24,156 bases of DNA from Betaproteobacteria bacterium (GCA_031404395.1 JANNHN010000210.1:1-24156); one strand, 5' to 3'; shown: positions 9,218-22,840, counted from the first letter of the stretch. Made by a program: numbers and translations. The notes: generated by a model from the letters alone, not told the origin.

Positions 9218-9751
9218 TCAATCAGGCATCGCGGCACAGATGCGCTGCACAACGGCAGGCTTGGGCAAATCCACATAAAGGTCTTCGAAAGCCAAAACCT
9301 GCATCGCCCCGACCCGCTCCAGCAGTTCGCCACGCCGCAGCAGGAAATCCGGGTTGGCCGGACGTCCGTACGCCTCATTACCCTCGGCAAACGTTTCGTA
9401 AATCAGCAAGCCGCCGGGGGCTATGGCGGCAATCAGGGCGGGAAACAGCGGCCGGTGCAGATAATTGGTGACGACCACCGCAGCAAACTGCCGGCCGGCA
9501 TAGGGCCAGGGGCCGCCTTCGATATCGGCACACCGCGCGACAACCCCGGGCACGACGGCCAGCGCTGCAATCGCTGCCGCATCACGATCGACTGCATCAA
9601 CCGGGTGTCCGCGCGCCGCGAAAAACCGCGCATGACGGCCACTGCCACAGGCCACATCCAGTATGGCGCCCCCTGCAGGCACACGCTCCGCCCACTGCAC
9701 GACCCACGCCGACGGGATATCCAGCGCAGCGTGGTTGCCTGATCCGGCCAT
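9218..9751 (-). CDS. Class I SAM-dependent methyltransferase
   Basis: Motif I LDVACGSGRH, motif II AVDRD, VVVTNYLHR and GGLLIYETF. Start is ATG 9751 or 9763. Confidence 0.85.
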   Translation of the reverse strand: MAGSGNHAALDIPSAWVVQWAERVPAGGAILDVACGSGRHARFFAARGHPVDAVDRDAAAIAALAVVPGVVARCADIEGGPWPYAGRQFAAVVVTNYLHRPLFPALIAAIAPGGLLIYETFAEGNEAYGRPANPDFLLRRGELLERVGAMQVLAFEDLYVDLPKPAVVQRICAAMPD

Positions 9752-9774
9752 GCGCTGATGCACCCGTGTCGCCG

Positions 9775-10551
9775 TCAGGCCTGCTTCATACCCAGCACGC
9801 TGAAATACGCGTGGCTGCGTGTGGATACCCGGCGATGGCGCAATTCCACCGGTGTCCCGTCATAGGTGTATGCGACGCGTTCAATGGCGAGTACCGCCTC
9901 GCCCGCAGCGATCCCCAGCGCAGCAGCGAGTTTGCTGTCGGCATTGACCGCACGCACCCATTCCTCCACGCGGGTCACCGTGATGCCGAAACGCGTCTGG
10001 TAATAACCAAAGATGGTCATGCCGCGACGGCGAAACGCGGCCTCACGCAAATCAGGGAACACCGCTTGCGGCACCACCATCCGGTCAAAGATAACGGATT
10101 GATCCTGCAGAAACAGCAGGTTTTCAATGCGATACACCGGCGCGCCTCGCATAAGCTGCAGTCGCTGCGCCACGACAGCATCGGCCTTGCCGCGCCGGAA
10201 TGAGATGAGGCGGGTCTCCGGAAATTCCTTGCGCCCGGCGTCGTCAACGATGCGGAAATACGTATCCAGCATGTAATCCCGATTGCGGCTCGCGACAAAT
10301 GTCCCGCGCCCGCGCCGGCGCACCAGCACGCGCTCCGCAACCAGCTCACCGATGGCCTTGCGCACGGTACCCACGCTCACCGCGTAACGCCGCGCGAACT
10401 GGGATTCAGTCGGGATCGCGGCGCCCTGCGGCCACTCGCCCTCCATCAAGCTGCGCGTGATGCGTTTCTTGACCTCGGCGTACAGCGGGCCAGGCAATAC
10501 GCCGCCGGGATCCAGCGTCTCGTCCGCAGTGACTGCTAAATTATCCGGCAT
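9775..10551 (-). CDS. GntR-family (HutC/UTRA subfamily) transcriptional regulator
   Basis: wHTH PLYAEVK...IPTESQFARRYAVSVGTVRKAIGELV...RRRGRGTFV and a UTRA-like C-terminus (LAIERVAYTYDGTPVE). Divergent from the mutase operon. Confidence 0.92.
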   Translation of the reverse strand: MPDNLAVTADETLDPGGVLPGPLYAEVKKRITRSLMEGEWPQGAAIPTESQFARRYAVSVGTVRKAIGELVAERVLVRRRGRGTFVASRNRDYMLDTYFRIVDDAGRKEFPETRLISFRRGKADAVVAQRLQLMRGAPVYRIENLLFLQDQSVIFDRMVVPQAVFPDLREAAFRRRGMTIFGYYQTRFGITVTRVEEWVRAVNADSKLAAALGIAAGEAVLAIERVAYTYDGTPVELRHRRVSTRSHAYFSVLGMKQA

Positions 10552-10731
10552 GAGCCCTGTTGTTCATCGGGGTGGCATGAAAGTGGAATTGCATGAAACA
10601 GGCGGCGCCTCATGGCGCCAACCGGGCGCTTGTTGGTCTGGCAATCAATATATCAGGCGGCACACCAGACACCGCCGTATCTCCGGATCTTGCCGGGTTC
10701 TGGAGTCAGGCGTCGTAAAATAATTTATATT

Positions 10732-10744
10732 AATCAACAAGTTA
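10732..10744 (+). promoter_or_regulatory. Putative IHF binding site
   Basis: AATCAACAAGTTA is a perfect match to WATCAANNNNTTR, with an AT tract (TAAAATAATTTATATT) on its 5' side, in the divergent intergenic region. Confidence 0.6.
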
Positions 10745-10828
10745 TAATAATTCATCCGCTACCCGCATCAGGCAATGATGAATAAAAAACCTGCCTGCAG
10801 TCAATCAATTCATATAGATGAGATAGCT

Positions 10829-10857
10829 TTAATAGATAAGCTGGCATCCGCTACACT
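10829..10857 (+). promoter_or_regulatory. Putative sigma70 promoter of the mutase operon
   Basis: TTAATA (10829-10834), 17 nt, TACACT (10852-10857). RBS AAGGA at 10880-10884 precedes the GTG at 10890. Confidence 0.5.
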
Positions 10858-10889
10858 AATGCCCTGACTTAACGCCAATAAGGAACGTC

Positions 10890-11987
10890 GTGATCGAAAG
10901 TATTACCGTGTTCCGGCTGGCAGTACCGCTGACCAAACCCTATCGCCTCGCGTTCGGTGCAGTCGAACGCTACGACACGCTCATCGTTGAGATGACGGAT
11001 CGTGACGGTCGTCGCGGCCTCGGCGAAGCGACGGTGCTCACTGGCTACACCGACGAAACTATCGACGACTGCTGGCGCGTGGCGAGCGACATTGCGCAGA
11101 AACTCGCGGGCCGTGATCTGCAGGCTGCGCGCTCGCTGCTCCTGGCTCTGGCCGCAACCCATCCCTTCACCGCCACTGCATTCGGCACTGCTGTTGAAAT
11201 GATCGAGGGCAGCAGCTTTTTCGCAATAACGCAAAACACGCCCGTGCCGCTGGTCGGGCTGCTGGATGCCAAGGATGAAGCCGGCCTGCACGCCGAGGCC
11301 GACCGCCTGCTGGCGGAAGGCTACCGCACCTTCAAACTCAAAGTCGGCTTCAACGCCGCTGCCGATATTGAGAAAGTGCGCATGGCGCAACGGGCCGTGC
11401 GCGGTCGTGCCGCCCTTCGCATCGACGCCAATCAGGGTTACACCGCTGAGCAAGGCGTCGCATTCGTGCGCGCACTCGACCCTGCAGGCATAGAACTCTT
11501 TGAGCAGCCTTGCCCCGCCGGCGACTGGGAATCGCATCTCGCAGTAGCCAAAGCGGCCAGTGTGCCGCTGATGCTCGACGAATCGATTTACGGCATGGCC
11601 GATATCGAGAAAGCCGCCACACTGAAGTGCGCAACCTACATCAAACTAAAACTGATGAAGCTCGTCACGCTGGATGCATTGGCGCGCGCATTGGAACGTA
11701 TTCGCGAACTCGGCATGAAACCCGTACTCGGCAACGGTGTTGCCGCCGATCTGGGTTGCTGGCTGGAGAGCCTGGTCGCCGCGCGGCACATCGACAACGC
11801 CGGTGAACAGAACGGTTTTCTCAAGGCAAAAACACCGCTGCTGGCTGAGCCGCTGACTTTCGCAGACGGCGCACTGCAGCTCAAAGCGGGTTATGTGCCC
11901 CAACTCGATCCGGACCATATTGCCCGCTACCGCATCGATACGCTGACCTGCACGGCGCGCGGCGCCATCAAGGGAAGAGCGGCGTGA
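10890..11987 (+). CDS. Enolase-superfamily enzyme, muconate-lactonizing-enzyme (MLE) subgroup; function unknown
   Basis: 365 aa. Capping domain (GLGEA), KxK (TFKLKVG), metal ligands in RIDANQG / FEQP / MLDES, Lys in YIKLKLMK, and GEQNG at strand 8. Does not resemble methylaspartate ammonia-lyase. Confidence 0.88.
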   Translation: MIESITVFRLAVPLTKPYRLAFGAVERYDTLIVEMTDRDGRRGLGEATVLTGYTDETIDDCWRVASDIAQKLAGRDLQAARSLLLALAATHPFTATAFGTAVEMIEGSSFFAITQNTPVPLVGLLDAKDEAGLHAEADRLLAEGYRTFKLKVGFNAAADIEKVRMAQRAVRGRAALRIDANQGYTAEQGVAFVRALDPAGIELFEQPCPAGDWESHLAVAKAASVPLMLDESIYGMADIEKAATLKCATYIKLKLMKLVTLDALARALERIRELGMKPVLGNGVAADLGCWLESLVAARHIDNAGEQNGFLKAKTPLLAEPLTFADGALQLKAGYVPQLDPDHIARYRIDTLTCTARGAIKGRAA

Positions 11988-12976
11988 AAGCGGTCGCCAT
12001 CGCGAAATTCGGCGGCCCCGAGAATCTGCAATGGATGGATTGGCCCGACCCTGTGCCGGCCCAAGGCGAAGCGGTGGTCCGCCTCGATTACGCCGGCATC
12101 AATTTCATCGATATTTACATGCGCAGCGGCCATTACGCGCGCTCCCATACCTATCAGACGCCGCTGCCCATGACCATCGGCATGGAAGGCGGCGGCACCA
12201 TCGCCGCTCTGGGCGCAGATGTTAGCGGCTTCAAAATCGGTGACCGCGTTGCTTATTGCATCGTGCGCGGCAGCTACGCGCAATACGCGGCAGTGCCCGC
12301 GTGGAAACTCGTCAAGATTCCGGACGCCGTGCCGCTGCCGGTGGCCACGACTCTGATGCTCCAGGGCAACACTGCGCATTACCTCTCGCACTCGGCATTC
12401 CCGCTGGCGCCCGGCCATATTTGCCTGGTGCATGCCGGCGCAGGCGGCGTCGGACAACTGTTAATCCAGCTTGCCAAACTGCGTGGCGCGACCGTTATCA
12501 CTACAACAGGCAGCCGGGACAAAGCGGAAATCGCCAAACAGCGCGGCGCCGATCATGTCATCCTGTATCGCGATGTCGATTTCCGCGAGGAAGTCATGAA
12601 CATCACCGGCGGCAAAGGCGTCGATGTGGTCTATGACGCTGTCGGCAAGGACACCATCCACAACAGCATCCGCAGTCTGAGAAAACGCGGACTGTGCGTG
12701 AACTACGGCGGCGCCTCGGGGCTGGTGCAATCGATTGAGCCACTGGAGCTAGCCGAAGCCGGATCGGTATTTTTCACGCGTCCGCACCTTGCCGACTACA
12801 TAGGCACCTCTGAAGAATTGAACGCGCGCGCAGCGGACCTGTTTGCGGCTTACACCGCAGGCAAACTCACCGTCGCCATCGACCGCGAATTTGCACTTGC
12901 CGATGCGGCGGCAGCGCACCGCCATCTCGAAGGCCGCGGCACGCGCGGCAAACTGCTGCTCAAGATGACTCACTGA
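11984..12976 (+). CDS. Zeta-crystallin/quinone-oxidoreductase-like NADPH-dependent MDR oxidoreductase
   Basis: GINFIDIYMRSG, LVHAGAGGVGQLL, GVDVVYDAVG and LEGRGTRGKLLL; no Zn ligands. GTGA overlap with the upstream gene. Confidence 0.9.
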   Translation: MKAVAIAKFGGPENLQWMDWPDPVPAQGEAVVRLDYAGINFIDIYMRSGHYARSHTYQTPLPMTIGMEGGGTIAALGADVSGFKIGDRVAYCIVRGSYAQYAAVPAWKLVKIPDAVPLPVATTLMLQGNTAHYLSHSAFPLAPGHICLVHAGAGGVGQLLIQLAKLRGATVITTTGSRDKAEIAKQRGADHVILYRDVDFREEVMNITGGKGVDVVYDAVGKDTIHNSIRSLRKRGLCVNYGGASGLVQSIEPLELAEAGSVFFTRPHLADYIGTSEELNARAADLFAAYTAGKLTVAIDREFALADAAAAHRHLEGRGTRGKLLLKMTH

Positions 12977-13422
12977 TGACCACCAAACCAAAAACACTCG
13001 TTACCGGCGTCATCGGTTCTGACACCCACATCGTCGGCAACCGCATACTGTCGATGGCACTGGAAAAATCCGGCTACAAAGTGGTCGCGCTGGGCGCCCT
13101 CACCCCTTCCACTGACTTCGTGAAAGCTGCGGTTGAAACCGCCGCCGACGCCATCATGGTGTCCTCCCTCTACGGCCAGGGCGAACTCGATTGCCGCGGC
13201 TTCCGCGAATTGTGCATCGAGGCAGGACTCGACGACATCCTGCTCTACGTCGGCGGCAACCTGATTGTCGGCAAACATCCGTGGCCCACGGTAGAAAAAA
13301 TATTCCTCGACATGGGTTTCGACCGTGCAGCAGCACCCGGCACGCGCGCAGAGACCGTGGCTGAGTGGCTCAACAGGGATTTTGCCGCGCGCGCGCAAGG
13401 CCTGCACCGCGCGCCGGACTAG
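12976..13422 (+). CDS. glmS: Glutamate/methylaspartate-mutase-type B12-binding (sigma) subunit (also called MutS/MamA)
   Basis: GVIGSDTHIVGN (DxHxxG base-off/His-on motif), VSSLYGQGELDC and LLYVGGNLIVGK closely match clostridial GlmS as I recall it. TGATG coupling with the upstream gene. Confidence 0.95.
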   Translation: MTTKPKTLVTGVIGSDTHIVGNRILSMALEKSGYKVVALGALTPSTDFVKAAVETAADAIMVSSLYGQGELDCRGFRELCIEAGLDDILLYVGGNLIVGKHPWPTVEKIFLDMGFDRAAAPGTRAETVAEWLNRDFAARAQGLHRAPD

Positions 13423-13442
13423 TGCCTGTTAACAACCATCCC

Positions 13443-14855
13443 ATGAGCGCCGCGCTGCTGATCGACTTTGGATCGACCTACACCAAGCTGCGTGCCATTG
13501 ACCTCGCCGCGCGCAGCGTACTGGGTGCGGGTCAGGGTCCATCCACCGTGACGACCGACATCACCATCGGCATGAAAGCCGCACTCGCCGATCTCGAGCG
13601 GCACCTGGGTGGCCTGCCAAAGTTCAAGTATCGCCTCGCCTCCAGCAGCGCTGCCGGGGGCTTGCGCATGGTGACCGTGGGACTGGTGCGCGAACTCACC
13701 ACCGAAGCGGCGCGGCGTGCGGCGCTGGGCGCGGGCGCCAAACTTGTCGGCACCTTCGCCTATCGCCTCACAACCGCAGATATCAATAAAATCAATATGT
13801 TATCTCCGGATATCCTGTTGCTGGCCGGCGGCACTGACGGCGGCAACAGCGAAGTAATCATTGCCAACGCCAAAAGTCTGGGACGCGCCGCCTTCAACTG
13901 CCCCATTGTTTACGCCGGCAACCGCGCCGCCGAAGAAGACGCCTGCGCTGCGCTCTCAGGCAAAACGGTGATTGTCGCCGAGAACGTCATGCCGGAATTC
14001 AATGTGCTCAACATCGAGCCGGCGCGCGCGGCCATCCGTCGGATATTCATCGACCGCATTGTCCATGCCAAAGGCATAGACCGCGCACAGGCGGATTTCG
14101 ACGCGGTGCTGATGCCCACGCCGGCCGCCGTCATGGAGGGCGCGCGACTCGTCGCCGACGGCATAGACGGGCGCGGCGGACTGGGGCCTCTGCTCATCGT
14201 CGATCCGGGCGGCGCCACAACCGACGTGCATTCGGTTGCCGACGGTGAACCCGCAGAGAACGCCGTCGCCGTCGGTTTGCCGGAGCCGCGCGTGAAGCGT
14301 ACCGTTGAAGGCGACCTTGGCATGCGCCACAACGCGGCCACCATCGCCGAGGTCGCAGGACTTGACCACATCGCAGCCGATGCGGGACTGAAACCAGAGC
14401 GCGCCTCAGCACTTCTCTCCGCAATCGCCCGCGACGTGGAGCGACTACCGCAGACCACGGAAGAAATCGCACTGGATCTGGCGCTGGCGCGCGCTGCCGT
14501 GAAACATGCCGTCGCCCGCCACTGCGGCACAGTAGAAACGGTGCATACCGTCCACGGCGCGGTCATCGTCCAGCACGGCAAGGATCTGAGCCGCATCAGC
14601 GCCGTCATCGGCACCGGCGGAGCCATCGTCTCCAGCAGCGATCCGTACGCGGTGCTGATGATGACGCTTGCCAATCCGGAATCGCCGTTGTCACTGCGAC
14701 CCAAATCGCCGCGTCTGTTGCTCGACCGTCATTACCTGCTCTACGCTTGCGGCTTGCTGAGTACCGCGGATCCGCAGGCTGCACTGGAACTGGCAACCAA
14801 CCACCTCGAACCGCTCACTGAGGAGAAGCCCCATGAACGCGCCCACTGCGCCTGA
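13443..14855 (+). CDS. glmL: Glutamate-mutase accessory protein GlmL/MutL (actin-like ATPase, putative reactivating factor)
   Basis: From ATG 13443: LLIDFGSTYTK, SSAAGGLRM, DILLLAGGTDGGN, DPGGATTDVHS and KRTVEGDLGMR; lies between the S and E subunits. Confidence 0.92.
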   Translation: MSAALLIDFGSTYTKLRAIDLAARSVLGAGQGPSTVTTDITIGMKAALADLERHLGGLPKFKYRLASSSAAGGLRMVTVGLVRELTTEAARRAALGAGAKLVGTFAYRLTTADINKINMLSPDILLLAGGTDGGNSEVIIANAKSLGRAAFNCPIVYAGNRAAEEDACAALSGKTVIVAENVMPEFNVLNIEPARAAIRRIFIDRIVHAKGIDRAQADFDAVLMPTPAAVMEGARLVADGIDGRGGLGPLLIVDPGGATTDVHSVADGEPAENAVAVGLPEPRVKRTVEGDLGMRHNAATIAEVAGLDHIAADAGLKPERASALLSAIARDVERLPQTTEEIALDLALARAAVKHAVARHCGTVETVHTVHGAVIVQHGKDLSRISAVIGTGGAIVSSSDPYAVLMMTLANPESPLSLRPKSPRLLLDRHYLLYACGLLSTADPQAALELATNHLEPLTEEKPHERAHCA

Positions 14856-16323
14856 CGCAGCAACCCGCCTCCCGCTCTCCGAAACATCAATCCCTGACGA
14901 TGTGTTCCACACCATGCGCCAGGAAAACCTGGCGCGCTGGCCGACCGGAGCAGATGTGGATTTCGACGCGGCTGTCGAGCGCCACCGGACACTGCCCAAG
15001 CACAAGCAACTGGCGTGGGTGATGCGCGAAGCTGACCGCCAACGGCGCTGTCTCACCCAGCCGCGCGGCGGCTGCGCCACCTTCGAGATGCACCGCGCCC
15101 TCATGATCGCGCTCGACCGCGAAGGACTCGCCGACGTGGTGCCGACGACGACCGACAGCTATACGCGCAACGAACAATGGCAACTCGCACAACAAGGCAT
15201 CGATGAATCCGAGAAGGCTGGTCGTTCGCTGCTGAACGGCTATCCGATGGTGAACTACGGCGTCGCAAAAGCGCGCGCGCTGGTGGATGCCATCGACAAA
15301 CCCGCCATCATGCTGACCGGCACTTCCATGCCCAAACTGACCGGTGAAATCGGCTACGCCGGCGGTTACTCGGGTTATCTGGGATCAGGCATTGCCTACA
15401 CCACTTCCTATATCAAGGAACTCACGATCGAGGAAGGCATCCGCAATTACCAGTATCTCGATCGTCTGGTGGCGATGTATCAGGCGCATGGCGTCGAGCT
15501 CCACCGCCGGCAGCCGGGCTTTCTCACCGGCACCAACATTCCGCCTTCAATCGCCATCATCACCTGCGTGCTCGACTGCCTGCTTGCCGCGGGGCAAGGC
15601 GTGAAGAACTACGGACTGGAAATGGGCGAAACGATGCACCTCATCCAGGATGCCGCCGCAGTCGCCGCCTGCCGGGAGCTGTGCCAGGAATATCTCGTGA
15701 AAAAGGGATACCACGATGTATTCACGCCCATCACGCTGCTGCACTGGATGGGCGCCTGGCCGCAGGACGACGCGCAAGCGGCGGCGATCATCAGTTACGG
15801 CGGCACGCTCGCCGCGATTGCCGGCGCGAACAGCGTAACCACCAAGAGCACGCATGAAGCCTATGGCATCCCGACGCCGCAGGCGAACGCGGAAGGTCTG
15901 CGCACGACGCGCACGGCAATCTATCTCGCGCGCAACATCCGGCTCGACTCCATGCCTGAATTCCAGACGGAAAAAGATCTCATCAAGCGTGAAGCCCGGG
16001 CGATACTCGACAAGACGCTGGAAATGGGCGACGGCGATGCGGCCATCGGCACGGTGCGCGCCTTCGAGGCCGGCGTACTCGATGTTCCGTGGTCGCCCAA
16101 CCGCCATGTCAAAAGCCGCGTCATGCCGGCACGTGATATCGACGGCTATCTCCGTATCGTCGACCCCGGGCTTATGCCGTTCCCGAAGGACGTCATGGAA
16201 ATCCATGAAGAACGGCTCCGGCTGCGCGCCGAAAAAGAAGGCGTGGAGTACGGCCATGATCTCGCCGTCTCCAGTGTCTATGAAATGGCGGAGCCGATTG
16301 CGAAACTGCTGCCGGACAAATGA
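14833..16323 (+). CDS. glmE: Glutamate-mutase-like catalytic (epsilon) subunit with a divergent substrate pocket
   Basis: 496 aa. WPTG, QPRGG, DSYTR, ESEKAGRSLLNGYP, LTGT, HWMG, KSTHEA and GTVRAFEAGVLDVP are colinear with clostridial GlmE. RBS AGGAGA; 23-nt overlap with glmL. Confidence 0.93.
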   Translation: MNAPTAPDAATRLPLSETSIPDDVFHTMRQENLARWPTGADVDFDAAVERHRTLPKHKQLAWVMREADRQRRCLTQPRGGCATFEMHRALMIALDREGLADVVPTTTDSYTRNEQWQLAQQGIDESEKAGRSLLNGYPMVNYGVAKARALVDAIDKPAIMLTGTSMPKLTGEIGYAGGYSGYLGSGIAYTTSYIKELTIEEGIRNYQYLDRLVAMYQAHGVELHRRQPGFLTGTNIPPSIAIITCVLDCLLAAGQGVKNYGLEMGETMHLIQDAAAVAACRELCQEYLVKKGYHDVFTPITLLHWMGAWPQDDAQAAAIISYGGTLAAIAGANSVTTKSTHEAYGIPTPQANAEGLRTTRTAIYLARNIRLDSMPEFQTEKDLIKREARAILDKTLEMGDGDAAIGTVRAFEAGVLDVPWSPNRHVKSRVMPARDIDGYLRIVDPGLMPFPKDVMEIHEERLRLRAEKEGVEYGHDLAVSSVYEMAEPIAKLLPDK

Positions 16324-16357
16324 ATGTAGAATCAAAACATAATAAAAGGAGGAAAGC

Positions 16358-17317
16358 ATGAACTTACTGATGAAGGGGCTGGTCCTGATTTTCGTCGCCG
16401 GCTGCGCGCCGGTGCTGGCACAAACGTATCCAACGAAACCGGTGCGCATGGTAATCGGCTTCCCGCCCGGCGGCGGCACCGACATCATCGGCCGCATCGT
16501 CGCGCAGAAACTGGCCGAGGGACTGGGGCAGCAGGTCATCGTCGATAATCGCGGCGGCGCCAGCGGCCAGATTGCCGCTGATCTGGTCGCCAAGTCCCCG
16601 CCCGACGGCCACACGGTGATGATGGCGCATATCGGCGCCATGTCCATCCTGCCGTCGCTGTACCCGAAACTGCCCTACGATCCGGTGCGGGATTTTGCGC
16701 CGATCAGCCTGGTCGCAACCAGCCCCAATCTGGTGGTCGTACATCCATCGCTGCCGGTCAAGAACATCAAGGAATTGATCGCCCTCGCCAAGGCGCGTCC
16801 CGACCAATTGCATTACGCATCGCCGGGGGCAGGCCTGGTACAGCATCTCGCAGGCGAACTGTTCAACCTGCGCGCGAAGGTGAAAATAGTTCACGTTCCG
16901 TACAAGGGCGCCGGCCCTGCCATCGTCGACCTCATCGCCGGCCATGTACAGCTGAGCTTCGATGTGATACCGGCAGCACTTCCCTACGTCAAATCCGGAA
17001 GATTGCGCGCGGTGGCGGTCACCGGCGAAAAACGCACTGCCCTGCTGCCGGATATACCGACCATCAGCGAAAGCGGACTCCCCGGTTTCGATCTTGCCAC
17101 CTGGTGGGGGCTGGTCGCGCCGGCGGCGGTCAACAAAAACATCATCGGGCGTCTGCACGCCGAGACCGTAAAGCTGCTGCCCGGCGTCAAGGATCGCATC
17201 GCCAACGCCGGAGCGGATATCGTGGGCAATTCGCCCGCGGAGTTTGCAGCCTACATACAATCAGAGCGCGAGAAGTACGCGCGCATCGTCAAGGAAGCCA
17301 ACATCAAGATCGATTAG
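16358..17317 (+). CDS. Bug/TctC-family tripartite tricarboxylate transporter substrate-binding protein
   Basis: Signal peptide followed by YPTKPVRMVIGFPPGGGTD, DNRGGASG, HVPYKGAGPA and W-x-G-L-x-A-P; strong RBS AAAGGAGG. Confidence 0.93.
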   Translation: MNLLMKGLVLIFVAGCAPVLAQTYPTKPVRMVIGFPPGGGTDIIGRIVAQKLAEGLGQQVIVDNRGGASGQIAADLVAKSPPDGHTVMMAHIGAMSILPSLYPKLPYDPVRDFAPISLVATSPNLVVVHPSLPVKNIKELIALAKARPDQLHYASPGAGLVQHLAGELFNLRAKVKIVHVPYKGAGPAIVDLIAGHVQLSFDVIPAALPYVKSGRLRAVAVTGEKRTALLPDIPTISESGLPGFDLATWWGLVAPAAVNKNIIGRLHAETVKLLPGVKDRIANAGADIVGNSPAEFAAYIQSEREKYARIVKEANIKID

Positions 17318-17337
17318 CGTATTACTGTTATCGCCGC

Positions 17338-17367
17338 AAAAAAACGGGCGCAAGCGCCCGTTTTTTT
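17338..17367. terminator. Bidirectional Rho-independent terminator
   Basis: A7-CGGGCG-CAAG-CGCCCG-T7 between the convergent bug and hss genes. Confidence 0.9.
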
Positions 17368-17409: not shown

Positions 17410-18825
17410 TCAGATCACCCGGATATTCTTGAATTGCCAGGGATCCGAGGTATCCAGATCTTCCGGGAACGGATGGTTGCGGCCCTGCAGCGGCGTCCAG
17501 TCCGAATACGCGCCGACCATCGTGCCGAGATACGGCGCCGCAATTTCCAGTACTCGCCGGAAATCCATGTCGTCCGGATCAATGATGCCGGCGTGTGGAT
17601 TTTCCATGGCCCAGATCACTGCGCCGACTACCCCCGCGGCCACTTGCAGACTGGTCGCATTGTTGTATGGTGCCAGCTTGCGCGCCTCGTGGATCGACAG
17701 CTGCGAACCATACCAGTACGCACCCTTCTTGTGGCCGAGCAGCAACGCGCCCAGTTCATCAGTGCCGTCGGTAATCTCGTCGCGGTACAGCCGCCGTTGT
17801 TCCTGACCCACCCAATGGCGACCCGCAAGTTCATGCACCGACAGCACCGTGTCGTCGCAGGGATGATAGGCATAGTGGCAGGTCGGGCGGTACACCACCC
17901 GGTCGCCGTCGCGCACGGTCAGGTAATCAGATATCGAAATTGCCTCGCCGTGCGTAATCAGAAAACCGTGGAATGCACCCTCGTTGGGCGTCCAGGTGCG
18001 CACGCGCACCGACGCGCCGGGACGATTCAGATAAATCGCCGCCTTGCAGCCAAAATCATGCTCGCGGCCTTCCGGCGGAAAATATTTCTCGTGGCTGCCC
18101 CAACCCAGTTCGCAGGGCTGCGAGCCTTCCCCGATAAAACCGTCCACGGACCAGGTATTCACAAACTCGCCGCGCCGCTTGCGCGGTGAAGCCACCTGGG
18201 TGTCGCGCTCCGAGCAATGAATGCTCTTCACGCCGAGTTCCATGGCCAGTTGCCCCCAGCCGGATTTCGACTGCGGGATATCCGTGCGACCGAGGATGTC
18301 CTGCGAGAGATTGACCAGCGCCTGCTTGACCCAGTGCGAAATCAGGCCGGGATTGGCGCCATGCGTGGGAATGACGGTCGGACCCGCAGGAAATTTCTTG
18401 CGCAACCCCAGCACTTCCTCACGCTGCCCGTAGTTGGAGCGGCGCGACGCCGATACCGACTGATCCGTGTATCCGCCGGCCCACGGCTCAATGCACGAAT
18501 CGAGGTAAAGCACGCCTTTTTCACAGCAGAATTCGATCAGCGCAGAACTCGCCACATCGACCGACAGATTGATCAGGAAATCGCCGCGATCCAGCCGCGA
18601 ATCAAGGATCGCGCGGAAGTTCTCGCGCGTGAGCGGGTTTATTTCGTAACGAATGCCGAACGACTCGGCCTCGGCACGGCCGCGATCATGCCCGGTAATG
18701 ATCGAAATCCGCTCTTTCGGCATGTCGATATGGCGCAGCAACAGCGGCAGAACGCCCTGCGCGACCGAACCGAAGCCGACGAAAACAATGTTTCCCGCGA
18801 ATTTGAAGTGCTTTTTATCTGCCAT
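17410..18825 (-). CDS. hss: Homospermidine synthase
   Basis: 471 aa. Rossmann motif VGFGSVAQG, YLDSCIEPW, HGANPGLISH, EFVNTWSVDGF, YRPTCHYAYHPC and NATSLQV. Confidence 0.93.
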   Translation of the reverse strand: MADKKHFKFAGNIVFVGFGSVAQGVLPLLLRHIDMPKERISIITGHDRGRAEAESFGIRYEINPLTRENFRAILDSRLDRGDFLINLSVDVASSALIEFCCEKGVLYLDSCIEPWAGGYTDQSVSASRRSNYGQREEVLGLRKKFPAGPTVIPTHGANPGLISHWVKQALVNLSQDILGRTDIPQSKSGWGQLAMELGVKSIHCSERDTQVASPRKRRGEFVNTWSVDGFIGEGSQPCELGWGSHEKYFPPEGREHDFGCKAAIYLNRPGASVRVRTWTPNEGAFHGFLITHGEAISISDYLTVRDGDRVVYRPTCHYAYHPCDDTVLSVHELAGRHWVGQEQRRLYRDEITDGTDELGALLLGHKKGAYWYGSQLSIHEARKLAPYNNATSLQVAAGVVGAVIWAMENPHAGIIDPDDMDFRRVLEIAAPYLGTMVGAYSDWTPLQGRNHPFPEDLDTSDPWQFKNIRVI

Positions 18826-19237: not shown

Positions 19238-20662
19238 ATGTCTGCAGTTGAAGTACCGTCCACCTCCGCCGCAGTGCAAACCGTCTCTGCACTGGTTGCA
19301 CGCGCACGCAAAGCGCAGGCTGCAATCACGCACTACACGCAGACGCAGCTCGATGAGCTGGTCACTGCGTCCGGCTGGGCGATCATGGAACCTGCGCGCA
19401 ACAAATTACTGGCCGAAATTGCCGTGCGCGACACCGGCCTCGGCAACGTCGAAGACAAAATCACCAAAAATCACCGCAAGACACTGGGCCTGCTGCGCGA
19501 CCTGCAGGGCGCCATCTCCACCGGCATACTCGCCGAGCTGCCGGAACTGGGCATCACCGAGATCGCGCGGCCGGTCGGTGTGGTTGCCGCTGTCGTGCCT
19601 TCAACCAATCCCGGCGCGACACCCGCCAACAATATCATCAACGCGCTGAAGTGCGGCAATGCCGTCATTCTGTCGCCCTCGCCCAAGGGTTACTCGACGG
19701 CGGCGAAACTGCTGGAATTCATTCATGCCGAATTCGCGCGCATCGGCGCGCCGACCGATCTGGTGCAGACCCTGCCGCATCCGGTCACCAAGGAAAGCTC
19801 CAGCGAGTTGATGAAGCAGTGTGATCTGGTGGTCGTCACCGGTTCGCAGGCCAATGTGCGCGCGGGTTACTCCAGCGGCACGCCGGCGCTGGGCGTGGGC
19901 GCGGGCAATGTCGCGGTGATCGTTGACGACAGCGCCGACTGCGGGGACGCGGCGCAGAAAATCATGCACTCGAAGATTTTCGACAATGCGACGAGTTGCT
20001 CGTCGGAAAACAGTGTCATCATCGATGCCGCGGTTTACGAGCGCATGCTCAAGGCGTTGACCGCAGCCGGCGGCGCGTTGCTGACCGTGGCGGAAAAAGA
20101 AACCCTGCAGAAAACCATGTTCCCCGGCGGCAAACTGTCGCCGGCAGTGACCGCGCAATCCGTAGGCAGAATCTGTGCGGTAGCCGGACTGACGCGCCCC
20201 GAACTCGTCAACGCCAAATGCCTGATGGTCGAGGAATCCGGCACCGGCAAAGCCGCGCCGTTCTCCGGCGAGAAACTGTCACCCGTGCTGACCATTTACA
20301 AAGCGCGTGATTTCGACCACGCGTTTGCCACGCTGCGCGCCATCTACGACTATCAGGGCGACGGCCACTCCTGCGGCATCCACACCACGAACAACGAACA
20401 CATTCGCCGGCTGGGCATGGAAATGACCGTCTGCCGCGTCATCGTCAACCAGGCCCACGCCATCGCCAACGGCGGCAGCTTCGACAACGGCCTGCCGTTC
20501 TCGCTGACCATGGGTTGCGGCACCTGGGGCGGCAACAGTTTTTCCGAGAACCTGAATTACCGGCACTTCATGAACACCACGCGCATCGTGCGTCCCATCC
20601 CGCCGCGCGAGCCGTCTCCCGAAGACATCTTCGGCGCGTACCGCCGGAAATACGGCGCGTGA
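19238..20662 (+). CDS. sauS: CoA-acylating aldehyde dehydrogenase, sulfoacetaldehyde dehydrogenase (SauS)-like
   Basis: WAIMEPARN, KNHRKTLGLLRDL, PSTNPGATPA, catalytic FDNATSCSSENS, PFSGEKLSPVL and NGLPFSLTMGCGTWGGN closely match Cupriavidus SauS as I recall it; paired with a SauT-like ligase. Confidence 0.8.
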   Translation: MSAVEVPSTSAAVQTVSALVARARKAQAAITHYTQTQLDELVTASGWAIMEPARNKLLAEIAVRDTGLGNVEDKITKNHRKTLGLLRDLQGAISTGILAELPELGITEIARPVGVVAAVVPSTNPGATPANNIINALKCGNAVILSPSPKGYSTAAKLLEFIHAEFARIGAPTDLVQTLPHPVTKESSSELMKQCDLVVVTGSQANVRAGYSSGTPALGVGAGNVAVIVDDSADCGDAAQKIMHSKIFDNATSCSSENSVIIDAAVYERMLKALTAAGGALLTVAEKETLQKTMFPGGKLSPAVTAQSVGRICAVAGLTRPELVNAKCLMVEESGTGKAAPFSGEKLSPVLTIYKARDFDHAFATLRAIYDYQGDGHSCGIHTTNNEHIRRLGMEMTVCRVIVNQAHAIANGGSFDNGLPFSLTMGCGTWGGNSFSENLNYRHFMNTTRIVRPIPPREPSPEDIFGAYRRKYGA

Positions 20663-20708: not shown

Positions 20709-21311
20709 ATGAACCCGAACAAAAGCATCGATTTCTTCGAAACACAGTTCCGCAAGCAGGTTGCAGCCGGCGATTTTGCGCTGAACCCGTTCGAGACGGC
20801 CTGCCTGCCCTTCGTGCACGGACGCGTACTGGATTTCGGTTGCGGGCTGGGCAACCTGGCGATCACAGCGGCGCGCCGCGAGCTGGACGTAGTGGCTGTC
20901 GACGCGAGCGAGGCCGCGATCGCGCGTATCAGGAAGACCGCGACGGCTGAACGTCTCCGGATCGACGCGCAATGCGCCGAGATCGGCGGTTACATCATCT
21001 CCGGGCAGTTTGACACCATTGTCGCCATCGGCTTGCTGATGTTCTTCCCGCGGGAAAACGCGCTCGGGTTGCTGTCGCAGATACAGGCACACGTCACTGA
21101 TGGCGGCACGGCGATCGTCAACACGCTGACGGAGGGCACCACCTACATGGGCATGTTCGAACCGGGCCATTACCATCTCTTCGGCAAGAACGAATTGCGG
21201 GATCTGTTCGCAGGCTGGAAGGTTCTGCACTTCGCACACGATAATTTCACCGCACCAGAGGGCGCCACGAAGGCATTCGCGACCATCATCGCGCAGAAGA
21301 ACAATCCCTGA
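20709..21311 (+). CDS. Class I SAM-dependent methyltransferase (TehB-like)
   Basis: 200 aa. VLDFGCGLGN, VVAVDAS, FDTIVAIGLLMF and GGTAIV. Confidence 0.85.
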   Translation: MNPNKSIDFFETQFRKQVAAGDFALNPFETACLPFVHGRVLDFGCGLGNLAITAARRELDVVAVDASEAAIARIRKTATAERLRIDAQCAEIGGYIISGQFDTIVAIGLLMFFPRENALGLLSQIQAHVTDGGTAIVNTLTEGTTYMGMFEPGHYHLFGKNELRDLFAGWKVLHFAHDNFTAPEGATKAFATIIAQKNNP

Positions 21312-21331: not shown

Positions 21332-22840
21332 ATGCGCACCATCCGCCATTACGTCGACATCCGCGCCGCGGAACAGCCCTCCGCCACATGGCTGATCGCA
21401 CCAGAGACCGGTGCCACGATGACTTACGCGCAATTGCAACGCGATTCGCGTGAACTCGGCCGCTACCTGCTCGGTCTGGGACTCAGCAAGGGCGACAAAG
21501 TCGCGCTGATGCTGCACAACGGCTACCAGACCGGCCGCCTGCTGATCGGTGTCATGTATTCGGGATTCACGGTCGCGCCGCTGAACCTGCTGGCGCAACC
21601 TTCGCAACTGGCTTACGTGCTGGAGCACTCCGATACCCGCGTGGTGTTCACCAGCGAGGAATTTGCCGAACGATTGAAAACGGCGCTCGCCGGTATCCAG
21701 CGCGATATCACCGTCATCACCATCGACCCCGATGCGACGGCGCTCTTTGAGCAGGCAACATTGGCCGACAGCGCATTGCCGGAAGTTGCGGAAGCCGACG
21801 ATGCATTGCTGATGTACACCTCGGGCACCACCGGCCAACCCAAGGGCTGCGTACTGTCGCACCGCAGTGTCTGCGCCGGCGGCGAGTACACCAGTGCCGC
21901 ACATGAACTCACCGCAAAAGATCGCGTGCTGTGCGCGATGCCGCTGTACCACATCAACGGCCAGATCGTCACTGCTGTCGCACCGCTGGCTCACGGCGGC
22001 AGCGTGGTCATGCCCCGCCGCTTCAGCGTCAGCAACTACTGGGAACTCGCCACCAGACACCAGTGCACGTGGATCAACGTGGTGCCGACCATCATCGCCT
22101 ACCTGCTCAACGCACCGGATCCGCGCGACCGCGGACTCGACATCTCGCGCGTAAAGTTCTGCCGCTCGGCCTCGGCGCCGCTGCCGCCGGAACTGCACCG
22201 CGCTTTCGAAGACCGTTTCGGCATCGGCATCATTGAAACCTTCGGCATGACCGAGACCAACGCGCCCTGCTTCACCAATCCCATTGATCCAGCCAAACGC
22301 AAGATCGGCAGCCCCGGCACGGCTTTCGGCAATGAAGCCAAGGTCATCGATCCCGCCACGGGAAAAACGCAGCCGCGCGGCACGCCCGGCGAACTGATGG
22401 TACGCGGCGACAACGTGATGACGGGTTATTACAAGGATGCGGGGAACACCGCGAAAACGCTGGAGCCCGACGGCTGGATGCACACCGATGATCTGGGTTA
22501 TATGGACGCCGACGGATTCGTGTTCGTCACCGGGCGCATCAAGGAACTGATCATCAAGGGCGGCGAGAACATCGCGCCGCGTGAAATCGACGAAGCGCTG
22601 CTGAAACACCCCGCTGTACTCGAAGCTGCGGCAGTGGGCATCCCCGACGCCAATTACGGGCAGGACATCATGGCCTGCGTAGTAATCAAACCCGGCCATG
22701 AATGCAGCATCGCCGAACTCATCGAGTTCTCGCAGCAGGAACTCGGCAAGTACAAAACACCCAAGCTCATCAGGTTCGTCAACGACCTGCCCAAAGGCCC
22801 TTCAGGCAAGGTGCAGCGGCTCAAGCTCCTGGATCTGTAG
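21332..22840 (+). CDS. sauT: Acyl-CoA ligase, sulfoacetate--CoA ligase (SauT)-like
   Basis: YTSGTTGQPKG, PLYHING, CTWINVVPTIIAYLLN, FCRSASA, IIKGGENIAPREIDEAL and C-terminal GPSGKVQRLKLL as in SauT. The A7 motif reads TDD instead of TGD. Confidence 0.78.
   Translation: MRTIRHYVDIRAAEQPSATWLIAPETGATMTYAQLQRDSRELGRYLLGLGLSKGDKVALMLHNGYQTGRLLIGVMYSGFTVAPLNLLAQPSQLAYVLEHSDTRVVFTSEEFAERLKTALAGIQRDITVITIDPDATALFEQATLADSALPEVAEADDALLMYTSGTTGQPKGCVLSHRSVCAGGEYTSAAHELTAKDRVLCAMPLYHINGQIVTAVAPLAHGGSVVMPRRFSVSNYWELATRHQCTWINVVPTIIAYLLNAPDPRDRGLDISRVKFCRSASAPLPPELHRAFEDRFGIGIIETFGMTETNAPCFTNPIDPAKRKIGSPGTAFGNEAKVIDPATGKTQPRGTPGELMVRGDNVMTGYYKDAGNTAKTLEPDGWMHTDDLGYMDADGFVFVTGRIKELIIKGGENIAPREIDEALLKHPAVLEAAAVGIPDANYGQDIMACVVIKPGHECSIAELIEFSQQELGKYKTPKLIRFVNDLPKGPSGKVQRLKLLDL

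Follow-up and report, generated by a model that had tools for sequence, protein, structure and literature searches.

What does a B12-dependent mutase of the glutamate mutase type do when methylaspartate ammonia-lyase (MAL) is not encoded beside it? This question is raised by a 24,156-nucleotide stretch of betaproteobacterial DNA (GCA_031404395.1, JANNHN010000210.1), referred to here as the window. The window is contig C210 of a metagenome-assembled genome of 2.6 Mb in 557 contigs, which is 83% complete. Six co-directional, tightly coupled genes on the + strand (10890-17317) encode an MLE-like enzyme, a quinone oxidoreductase-type (QOR) reductase, GlmS, GlmL, GlmE and a Bug-type receptor. Few adenosylcobalamin (AdoCbl)-dependent carbon-skeleton mutases have been described; the textbook case of one acting on a free acid is glutamate mutase. 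Every pipeline labels the clade of the window enzyme as methylaspartate mutase. The original prediction, made from the sequence alone, was a non-canonical B12 mutase operon and probably a new catabolic pathway. This proposal was strengthened by the present analysis: the residues R149 and E171 were lost in 80/80 related E subunits, and an MLE-like gene was present in 29/30 related loci. The reading we favor, with moderate confidence, is that a new AdoCbl mutase would work together with an epimerase on an amine-free and probably sulfonated acid, and would feed a resident module of CoA ligase, SauS and Xsc.

Domains and families were assigned by Pfam and NCBIfam profile scores against their cut-offs. 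The E subunit (GlmE, 14833-16323, +) scored 463 bits for PF06368 (Met_asp_mut_E), 459 bits for TIGR01503 (cut-off 390) and 395 bits against the Clostridium cochlearium enzyme (1CB7_B), and its membership of the Met_asp_mut_E TIM-barrel family holds. Residues are numbered according to the C. cochlearium enzyme, to which the alignment was gap-free over the relevant stretch. The window GlmE retained R66, R100, Y177, Y181, K326 and E330, and carried the changes R149L, H150T, E171L and E214R. Structural work places R66, R149 and E171 at the migrating glycyl part of the substrate and R100 and Y177 at its acrylate part (PMC10947579). The Arg66/Arg100/Arg149 claw for two carboxylates was incomplete in the window GlmE, where Arg149 is replaced by Leu161. 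A total of 80 E subunits of the clade, taken from other genomes, were compared with 31 canonical representatives. Leu149, Thr/Ser150 and Leu171 were found in 80/80 clade members. Glu171 was found in 31/31 canonical representatives, and Leu183 occupies the equivalent position in the window. Thirteen positions were fixed differently between the two groups, including E214R, F216P, F297W and F408W. Since Arg149 and Glu171 are replaced in all 80 clade members, the enzyme cannot hold glutamate in the known way. By these residues it is no canonical glutamate mutase. It retains the residues on the acrylate and adenosyl sides, along with the B12-binding and radical machinery, and its glycyl subsite is rebuilt.

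In the AlphaFold2 model of GlmE (pLDDT 95.5), barrel strands 3, 4 and 5 end, on their C-terminal side, in L161, L183 and R226, respectively. R226 is at the position of E214 in the C. cochlearium enzyme. From the TIM-barrel topology, these three residues would touch the substrate, and an arginine has probably been relocated from strand 3 to strand 5 of the barrel. By residue count, the pocket charge changed from +1 to +3, with two negative charges lost. The GlmS-type B12-binding subunit (12976-13422, +; NF002612, 184 bits with a cut-off of 110; TIGR01501, 176 bits) keeps the base-off/His-on motif DxHxxG as D16-T-H18-I-V-G21 in its translation. GlmL (13443-14855, +) is a GlmL/MutL-type accessory protein, a mutase chaperone or reactivase (Pfam MutL; NF040745, 563 bits with a cut-off of 475).

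An exhaustive profile-free search returned 888 relatives of the E subunit, which were clustered into representatives at 50% identity. The window clade formed a single cluster, whose members were 68-85% identical to one another and at most 41% identical to anything else. In the tree, the clade (support 1.0) grouped with the representative P0127, which has the pocket signature RRLGITY, outside the canonical group. The canonical signature RRRHEYY was carried by only 31 of the 118 full-length Met_asp_mut_E representatives; thus, most of the "glutamate mutase" family is functionally unassigned. Arg100, Lys326 and Glu330 were nearly universal across the representatives (P0126-P0270), and some representatives were fused to a B12 domain (630-660 aa). 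The locus of this sister clade (P0127, L097:5019-13867) has the order MLE-S-L-E-MFS-TctB-TctA-TctC-aldehyde dehydrogenase-cupin-second MR_MLE, and by its gene content P0127 is another MLE-coupled GlmE-like mutase. Members of the window clade occur in Proteobacteria from freshwater, groundwater, soil and the sea, Polynucleobacter among them, with at least 130 species-level genomes counted. No paper describing the window enzyme or pathway turned up in full-text literature searches.

The partners of the mutase were counted in 30 well-flanked loci (at least 5 kb on both sides) among 80 related loci, with genes called per locus by a codon model. The MLE-like gene was found in 29/30 loci, a TctC-type receptor in 21/30, QOR in 16/30 and GntR in 6/30. 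TctA and TctB were found in 13/30 and 11/30, respectively, and the window holds a TctC-type receptor without either. The original prediction had asked whether the set of MLE, QOR, S, L, E, Bug and GntR recurs without MAL, and whether the MLE and QOR genes are conserved beside this GlmE clade. For MLE this was borne out; a uniform set was not, as QOR and GntR are less frequent and the type of Bug varies.

The MLE-like protein (10890-11987, +; Pfam MR_MLE_N/C) is an enolase-superfamily enzyme of the MLE subgroup. Aligned to YkfB (1JPM) and 3RIT, it has the full catalytic set of this subgroup (KxK, Asp, Glu, Asp, Lys), in the motifs K-l-K, riD, fEqp, mlDes and lKlmK. It was scored against the MLE-subgroup families OSBS, muconate cycloisomerase, Ala-Glu epimerase, N-acyl amino acid racemase and DgcA, and fell below every isofunctional NCBIfam cut-off, with 102 (131), 101 (335), 89 (500) and 71 (400) bits (cut-offs in brackets). 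Its best match in the PDB was 99 bits. The enzyme is a near-obligate partner of the mutase from an uncharacterized subfamily of the MLE subgroup. A (cyclo)isomerase had been proposed; an epimerase or a lyase is equally likely, and the enzyme is probably a C-alpha epimerase/racemase or a beta-eliminating lyase. The QOR (11984-12976, +; Pfam ADH_N and ADH_zinc_N) is probably a zinc-free, NADPH-dependent reductase of the medium-chain dehydrogenase/reductase (MDR) type. It scored 244.7 bits against 4RVU, 240.6 bits against the 2-haloacrylate reductase 1WLY and 263 bits on NF008024, which has a cut-off of 348. By these scores, 2-haloacrylate reductase and the quinone reductases are equally near to it, and it may act on a 2-substituted acrylate.

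The absence of MAL, also predicted, was upheld for the window, the 80 related loci and the remainder of the genome, which is 83% complete. No PF07476 match above the cut-off was found in the window or in that genome. MAL from a canonical locus gave no match as a tblastn query in the 80 loci or in the genome. The canonical locus of P0126, used as a positive control, has the order S-L-E-MAL. The MAAL_N and MAAL_C domains were not found in the enolase-type protein of the window, which matches only MR_MLE_N/C and does not figure among the weak MAAL_C matches of the genome.

The strongest functional clue was a recurrent linkage to sulfonate genes, which the original prediction had missed, together with the insertion of the operon beside a resident SauS/CoA-ligase block. 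SauS, Xsc or TauE was encoded within about 10 kb in 16/30 well-flanked loci, and SauS or Xsc in 12/30. The orders of the sulfonate genes around the clade varied among Beta-, Alpha- and Gammaproteobacteria. The neighboring thiamine pyrophosphate enzyme is Xsc (1066 bits). The genome of the window encodes Xsc on contig C209 (878 bits), and Xsc was encoded in all five further carrier genomes tested. SucCD-like neighboring ligases scored just under the SucCD cut-offs. The Tyr that binds succinate in the alpha subunit is replaced by Thr ("SRSGSLGT"), and on this ground they were rejected as succinyl-CoA synthetases. The SucCD-like type is known to include ADP-forming CoA ligases for sulfoacetate and 3-sulfopropionate (PMC10413351, PMC11489063). 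Related loci also encoded TauD, sulfo-lyase subunits of the SuyAB type, a dehydrogenase of the Ldh_2/ComC type and a CuyA-like pyridoxal phosphate enzyme. In loci of the alpha and gamma classes, a TauE gene interrupts the genes for an SdhABCD-like complex, and a class-I fumarase-like hydratase of two subunits is encoded. In metagenome-assembled genomes of Polynucleobacter (L070:13559-19598, L079), the mutase locus is adjoined by CobS/CobT-type cobaltochelatase genes and by a sulfolactate-type cluster of SuyAB, Ldh_2 and 2-hydroxyacid dehydrogenase.

A paralogue of the MLE-like enzyme (39-44% identical) was found in relatives of the genus in the gene order Bug, MLE, GntR-UTRA, TauD and sometimes a second Bug. 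Examples are L095:8120-12051 (genome G033, without the mutase) and L096:8251-13232 (genome G008). This cluster may be a second sulfonate pathway using the same enolase subfamily. Because the paralogue stands beside TauD without the mutase, the subfamily is tied to sulfonates independently of the mutase.

Comparison within the genus located the insertion. Relatives without the mutase have the order nuo-tpiA-methyltransferase-Bug-hss(-)-SauS-CoA ligase. In the window, GntR-MLE-QOR-S-L-E-Bug is inserted directly after the methyltransferase, beside the resident block of hss, SauS and CoA ligase. The mutase was found in only 1/36 other species of the genus. GntR was missing at the equivalent position in relatives without the mutase and present in the mutase-bearing G008. 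In G008 (L091, G008:C20:28000-47900), GntR-QOR-S-L-E precedes the resident Bug, and no MLE orthologue is present; this is a natural "MLE-less" variant. The window Bug (16358-17317, +) is a Bug/TctC-type periplasmic solute receptor (Pfam TctC, 242 bits). Its identity was 71% to the Bug located after GlmE in locus L009, and only 46-49% to the genus-resident Bug. By these identities, the window Bug is a different paralogue from the resident one, and it arrived with the cassette. The unit at 9775-17367 is a horizontally acquired seven-gene catabolic cassette, formed by a GntR/UTRA gene and six + strand genes and closed by a terminator.

SauS (19238-20662, +) is a CoA-acylating sulfoacetaldehyde dehydrogenase (NF047625, 745 bits with a cut-off of 600). 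It is adjoined by an AMP-forming acyl-CoA ligase (21332-22840, +), which has AMP-binding domains and no specific NCBIfam assignment. Both genes are syntenic in relatives that lack the cassette and are thus resident. The ligase may be a SauT-like enzyme that forms CoA esters of sulfo-acids. The cassette resembles an addition made next to a sulfoacetate-type module that was already there. We propose that resident SauS serves as the downstream acceptor module for the cassette, a link suggested by recurrent adjacency in other taxa. Among 40 genomes of the genus, SauS exceeded its cut-off in 29 and Xsc was present in 36, and the mutase showed no co-variation with either of them at the level of the genus. 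The sulfonate argument is therefore one of cross-taxon adjacency only.

The conserved acrylate subsite leads to substrates of the form X-CH2-CH2-COO-/CH3-CH(X)-COO-. The mutase would not use glutamate; it would rearrange an amine-free, more negative X-CH2-CH2-COO- to CH3-CH(X)-COO-, or the reverse. The MLE-type enzyme would epimerize the acidic C-alpha of the branched isomer. Alternatively, it would eliminate X, as methylaspartase eliminates ammonia. The QOR would reduce CH2=C(X)-COO- to CH3-CH(X)-COO-, feeding the same pool. The Bug/TTT (tripartite tricarboxylate transporter) system would import the substrate, most probably a sulfo-carboxylate, and the resident CoA ligase, SauS and Xsc would take the product and release sulfite. 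Import of sulfoacetate by a TTT system has been proven (PMC10413351). The earlier suggestion of a dicarboxylate or lactone acid found no specific support, and a sulfo-carboxylate is more likely.

A specific lead is that X may be sulfonate. Among the X groups that agree with the sulfonate gene context, sulfonate itself is the simplest. The enzyme would then interconvert 3-sulfopropanoate and 2-sulfopropanoate via acrylate and a sulfite radical anion, much as glutamate mutase passes through acrylate and a glycyl radical. The ligase/SauS/Xsc route, or TauD, would be well matched to the alpha-sulfo isomer. We know of no direct desulfonation route for beta-sulfo acids in these bacteria. In its full form, the lead is an AdoCbl sulfonate mutase with a dedicated enolase-superfamily 2-sulfopropanoate racemase, which would join beta-sulfo acids to the alpha-sulfo machinery (Sau/Xsc/TauD) or the reverse; so stated, it is rather doubtful. 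3-Sulfopropanoate is a natural product, and its degradation via sulfoacrylate and sulfolactate has been reported (PMC11489063). Such a route agrees with the presence of Sdh-like, fumarase-like, 2-hydroxyacid dehydrogenase and Ldh_2 genes in the alpha and gamma loci, and with the SuyAB genes.

Several points weigh against the proposed mutase and epimerase pathway. The evidence is computational throughout. The S, L and E subunits still pass the NCBIfam equivalog cut-offs. That R226 would line the pocket follows from barrel topology. In the congener G008 the cassette has no MLE gene, and the mutase-bearing G067 (Rhodospirillales) encodes an unlinked MAL. No sulfonate gene lies within 10 kb in 14/30 well-flanked loci. 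Within the genus, SauS and Xsc are near-universal and the mutase is rare, and the local adjacency could be positional. The QOR has no explained role in the direction from 3-sulfopropanoate to 2-sulfopropanoate. To our knowledge, there is no physiological source of 2-sulfopropanoate or 2-sulfoacrylate.

The alternative that survives best is a non-sulfonated, amine-free C5/C6 dicarboxylate such as 2-hydroxyglutarate, 2-oxoglutarate or 2-methyleneglutarate. The MLE-type enzyme would dehydrate or isomerize its branched product, and the sulfonate genes would be frequent neighbors in an "acid-catabolism island". This is a real minority possibility. The loss of the amine-binding Glu171 suits any amine-free analogue, and glutamate mutase slowly accepts 2-hydroxyglutarate. 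The 14 loci without nearby sulfonate genes and the missing co-variation with SauS or Xsc inside the genus also suit it, and the class-I fumarase-like and Sdh-like genes of some loci are compatible with mesaconate/methylsuccinate chemistry. However, at least seven sulfonate-specific families (Xsc, SauS, SauCD-like, TauE, SuyAB, ComC-type and TauD) recur in three classes and in many gene orders, and by a rough estimate the chance of adjacency to a single-copy gene within 20 kb in a genome of 3-4 Mb is <1%. The link of the MLE paralogue to TauD independently of the mutase, the net positive charge gained by the pocket and the insertion of the cassette beside SauS also weigh against this alternative.

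It is improbable that the enzyme is still a glutamate mutase, with the MLE-type enzyme as a non-orthologous replacement of MAL in a variant methylaspartate pathway. The equivalog scores of S, L and E favor this explanation, as do the identity of the E subunit to canonical enzymes (about 40%), the superfamily and mechanism common to MAL and the MLE-type enzyme, and the fumarase/mesaconase-like genes in some loci. However, the glycyl-holding Arg149 and Glu171 are changed to Leu in every clade member, eleven further specificity positions differ from the 31 canonical representatives, and no conserved ammonia- or glutamate-related genes were found nearby. The MAL elsewhere in the one carrier genome, G067, would also favor a glutamate mutase. 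This homologue (L101:7920-9335, 299 bits) was rejected as a partner of the mutase: it is 400 kb away, in a cluster with a peptide-type ABC transporter, MmgE-PrpD, AsnC, an M24 peptidase and Amdase, and G067 has no second, canonical GlmE. G067 is itself a case of MAL used outside a mutase context.

A larger sulfonate is just as unlikely: 2-sulfoglutarate would be rearranged to 3-methyl-2-sulfosuccinate, followed by MLE-type elimination of sulfite to mesaconate, or by Sdh-like and fumarase-like steps and a lyase to sulfoacetate and pyruvate, and although three pocket arginines (R66, R100 and the new R226) and the frequent TTT "tricarboxylate" transporters suit a tri-anion and a single pathway would explain the SauCD/SauS/Xsc module plus the Sdh/Fum genes, the loci share no conserved lyase or aldolase gene, two Phe-to-Trp changes together with the two Leu replacements point to a pocket that is smaller and not larger, the di-anion sulfoacetate is likewise a TTT cargo, and we know of no natural source of 2-sulfoglutarate.

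The predicted architecture of the operon was confirmed from coordinates and translations for all six + strand open reading frames and their junctions. The genes for the MLE-like enzyme and the QOR overlap by GTGA at 11984-11987, and those for the QOR and GlmS by TGATG at 12974-12978. GlmS and GlmL are separated by 20 nt; the true start of GlmL is the ATG at 13443, as opposed to the longest-ORF start at 13365. GlmL and GlmE overlap by 23 nt, and the 34-nt gap between GlmE and Bug contains an AAGGAGG site. The GTG start of the MLE-like gene at 10890 is preceded by the ribosome-binding site AAGGAA. The divergent regulator (9775-10551, -) was confirmed as a GntR-family protein with a UTRA effector domain of the HutC/PhnF type (Pfam GntR and UTRA). 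The closing terminator was also confirmed, as A7-CGGGCGC-AAGC-GCGCCCG-T7 at about 17338-17367. The fold of a 106-nt segment reached -35.6 kcal/mol (z = -4.05), and 0/200 shuffles were as stable. The terminator is bidirectional and intrinsic, and it serves both the operon and the convergent hss gene.

The single upstream promoter was only partly supported: a 9/12 consensus match was found at 10724-10751 (+), but the number of such matches was not above that in shuffled sequences (4 vs 3.2 expected). The AT-rich divergent control region (10552-10889) also contains promoter-like hexamers on the minus strand at 10804-10775; its hexamers and ribosome-binding site are consensus matches only. An exact 10-nt direct repeat, CATCCGCTAC, occurs in this region at 10753-10762 and 10845-10854, 92 nt apart. 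It was rejected as a conserved operator, since CATCCGCTAC has no counterpart at equivalent places in related loci and may be due to chance.

The gene at 17410-18825 (-), saccharopine-dehydrogenase-like, was rejected as a member of the pathway. It is the homospermidine synthase gene hss (556 bits to PDB 4XQ9), which is resident in genomes without the cassette. All genus relatives examined have it between Bug and SauS, an odd yet conserved placement of a polyamine gene in a sulfoacetate-type cluster. Two genes encode small S-adenosylmethionine-dependent methyltransferases of the TehB/Methyltransf_25 type. The one flanking the cassette (9218-9763, -) is syntenic in relatives, and the one between SauS and the CoA ligase (20709-21311, +) had no match in the four relatives compared.

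The supply of B12 was also examined. A PduO-type adenosyltransferase gene was present in the genome, and a cobalamin riboswitch (92 bits) was found upstream of a TonB-dependent receptor (G000:C450:554-2876, L099). Neither CobA nor CobS was found in the genome at its 83% completeness. The original prediction had asked for B12 uptake and synthesis genes to be checked, and these results point to salvage. The host is probably a B12 scavenger.

With the substrate identified, the known B12-dependent reactions would gain a new member. A gap in organosulfonate catabolism that concerns the fate of 3-sulfopropanoate and related acids would probably be filled, and part of the sulfur cycle would come to depend on B12.

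The proposed system can be compared with known ones. The window QOR is probably, like the 2-haloacrylate reductase CAA43 (PDB 1WLY), a zinc-free NADPH-dependent MDR enzyme, and its similarity to this reductase or to quinone reductases is only moderate. Sulfoacetate degradation uses SauT or SauCD, SauS, Xsc and TauE, with the TTT importer SauXYZ; it is known in Cupriavidus necator and in Bilophila wadsworthia (PMC10413351). The window has the SauS equivalog and a CoA ligase 2-4 kb downstream of the operon, a TTT-type receptor in the operon and Xsc elsewhere; SauCD-like, Xsc and TauE genes are found in loci related to the window. The known sulfoacetate pathway needs no mutase, enolase-type enzyme or QOR, which in the window form an added upstream module. 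The pairing of a C-alpha epimerase with an AdoCbl mutase would follow the same logic as methylmalonyl-CoA epimerase and mutase, but the window proteins belong to unrelated families and would act on a free acid instead of a CoA thioester. In glmS-glmL-glmE-mal operons, an enolase-superfamily gene likewise stands directly beside the mutase, and the window enzyme could act on the alpha proton of the branched product. It differs from MAL in belonging to the MLE subgroup (KxK plus Lys) and in lacking MAAL_N/MAAL_C. The C. cochlearium glutamate mutase (GlmS/GlmE with GlmL; PDB 1CCW/1CB7/1I9C, EC 5.4.99.1) has the same S-L-E architecture, DxHxxG subunit and TIM-barrel E subunit. The window enzyme differs from it by R149L, H150T/S, E171L, E214R and nine further fixed changes, and its clade has MLE-type, QOR and TTT partners and a sulfonate gene context in place of MAL. 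Fragmentation and recombination around the acrylate half of the substrate is likely common to both.

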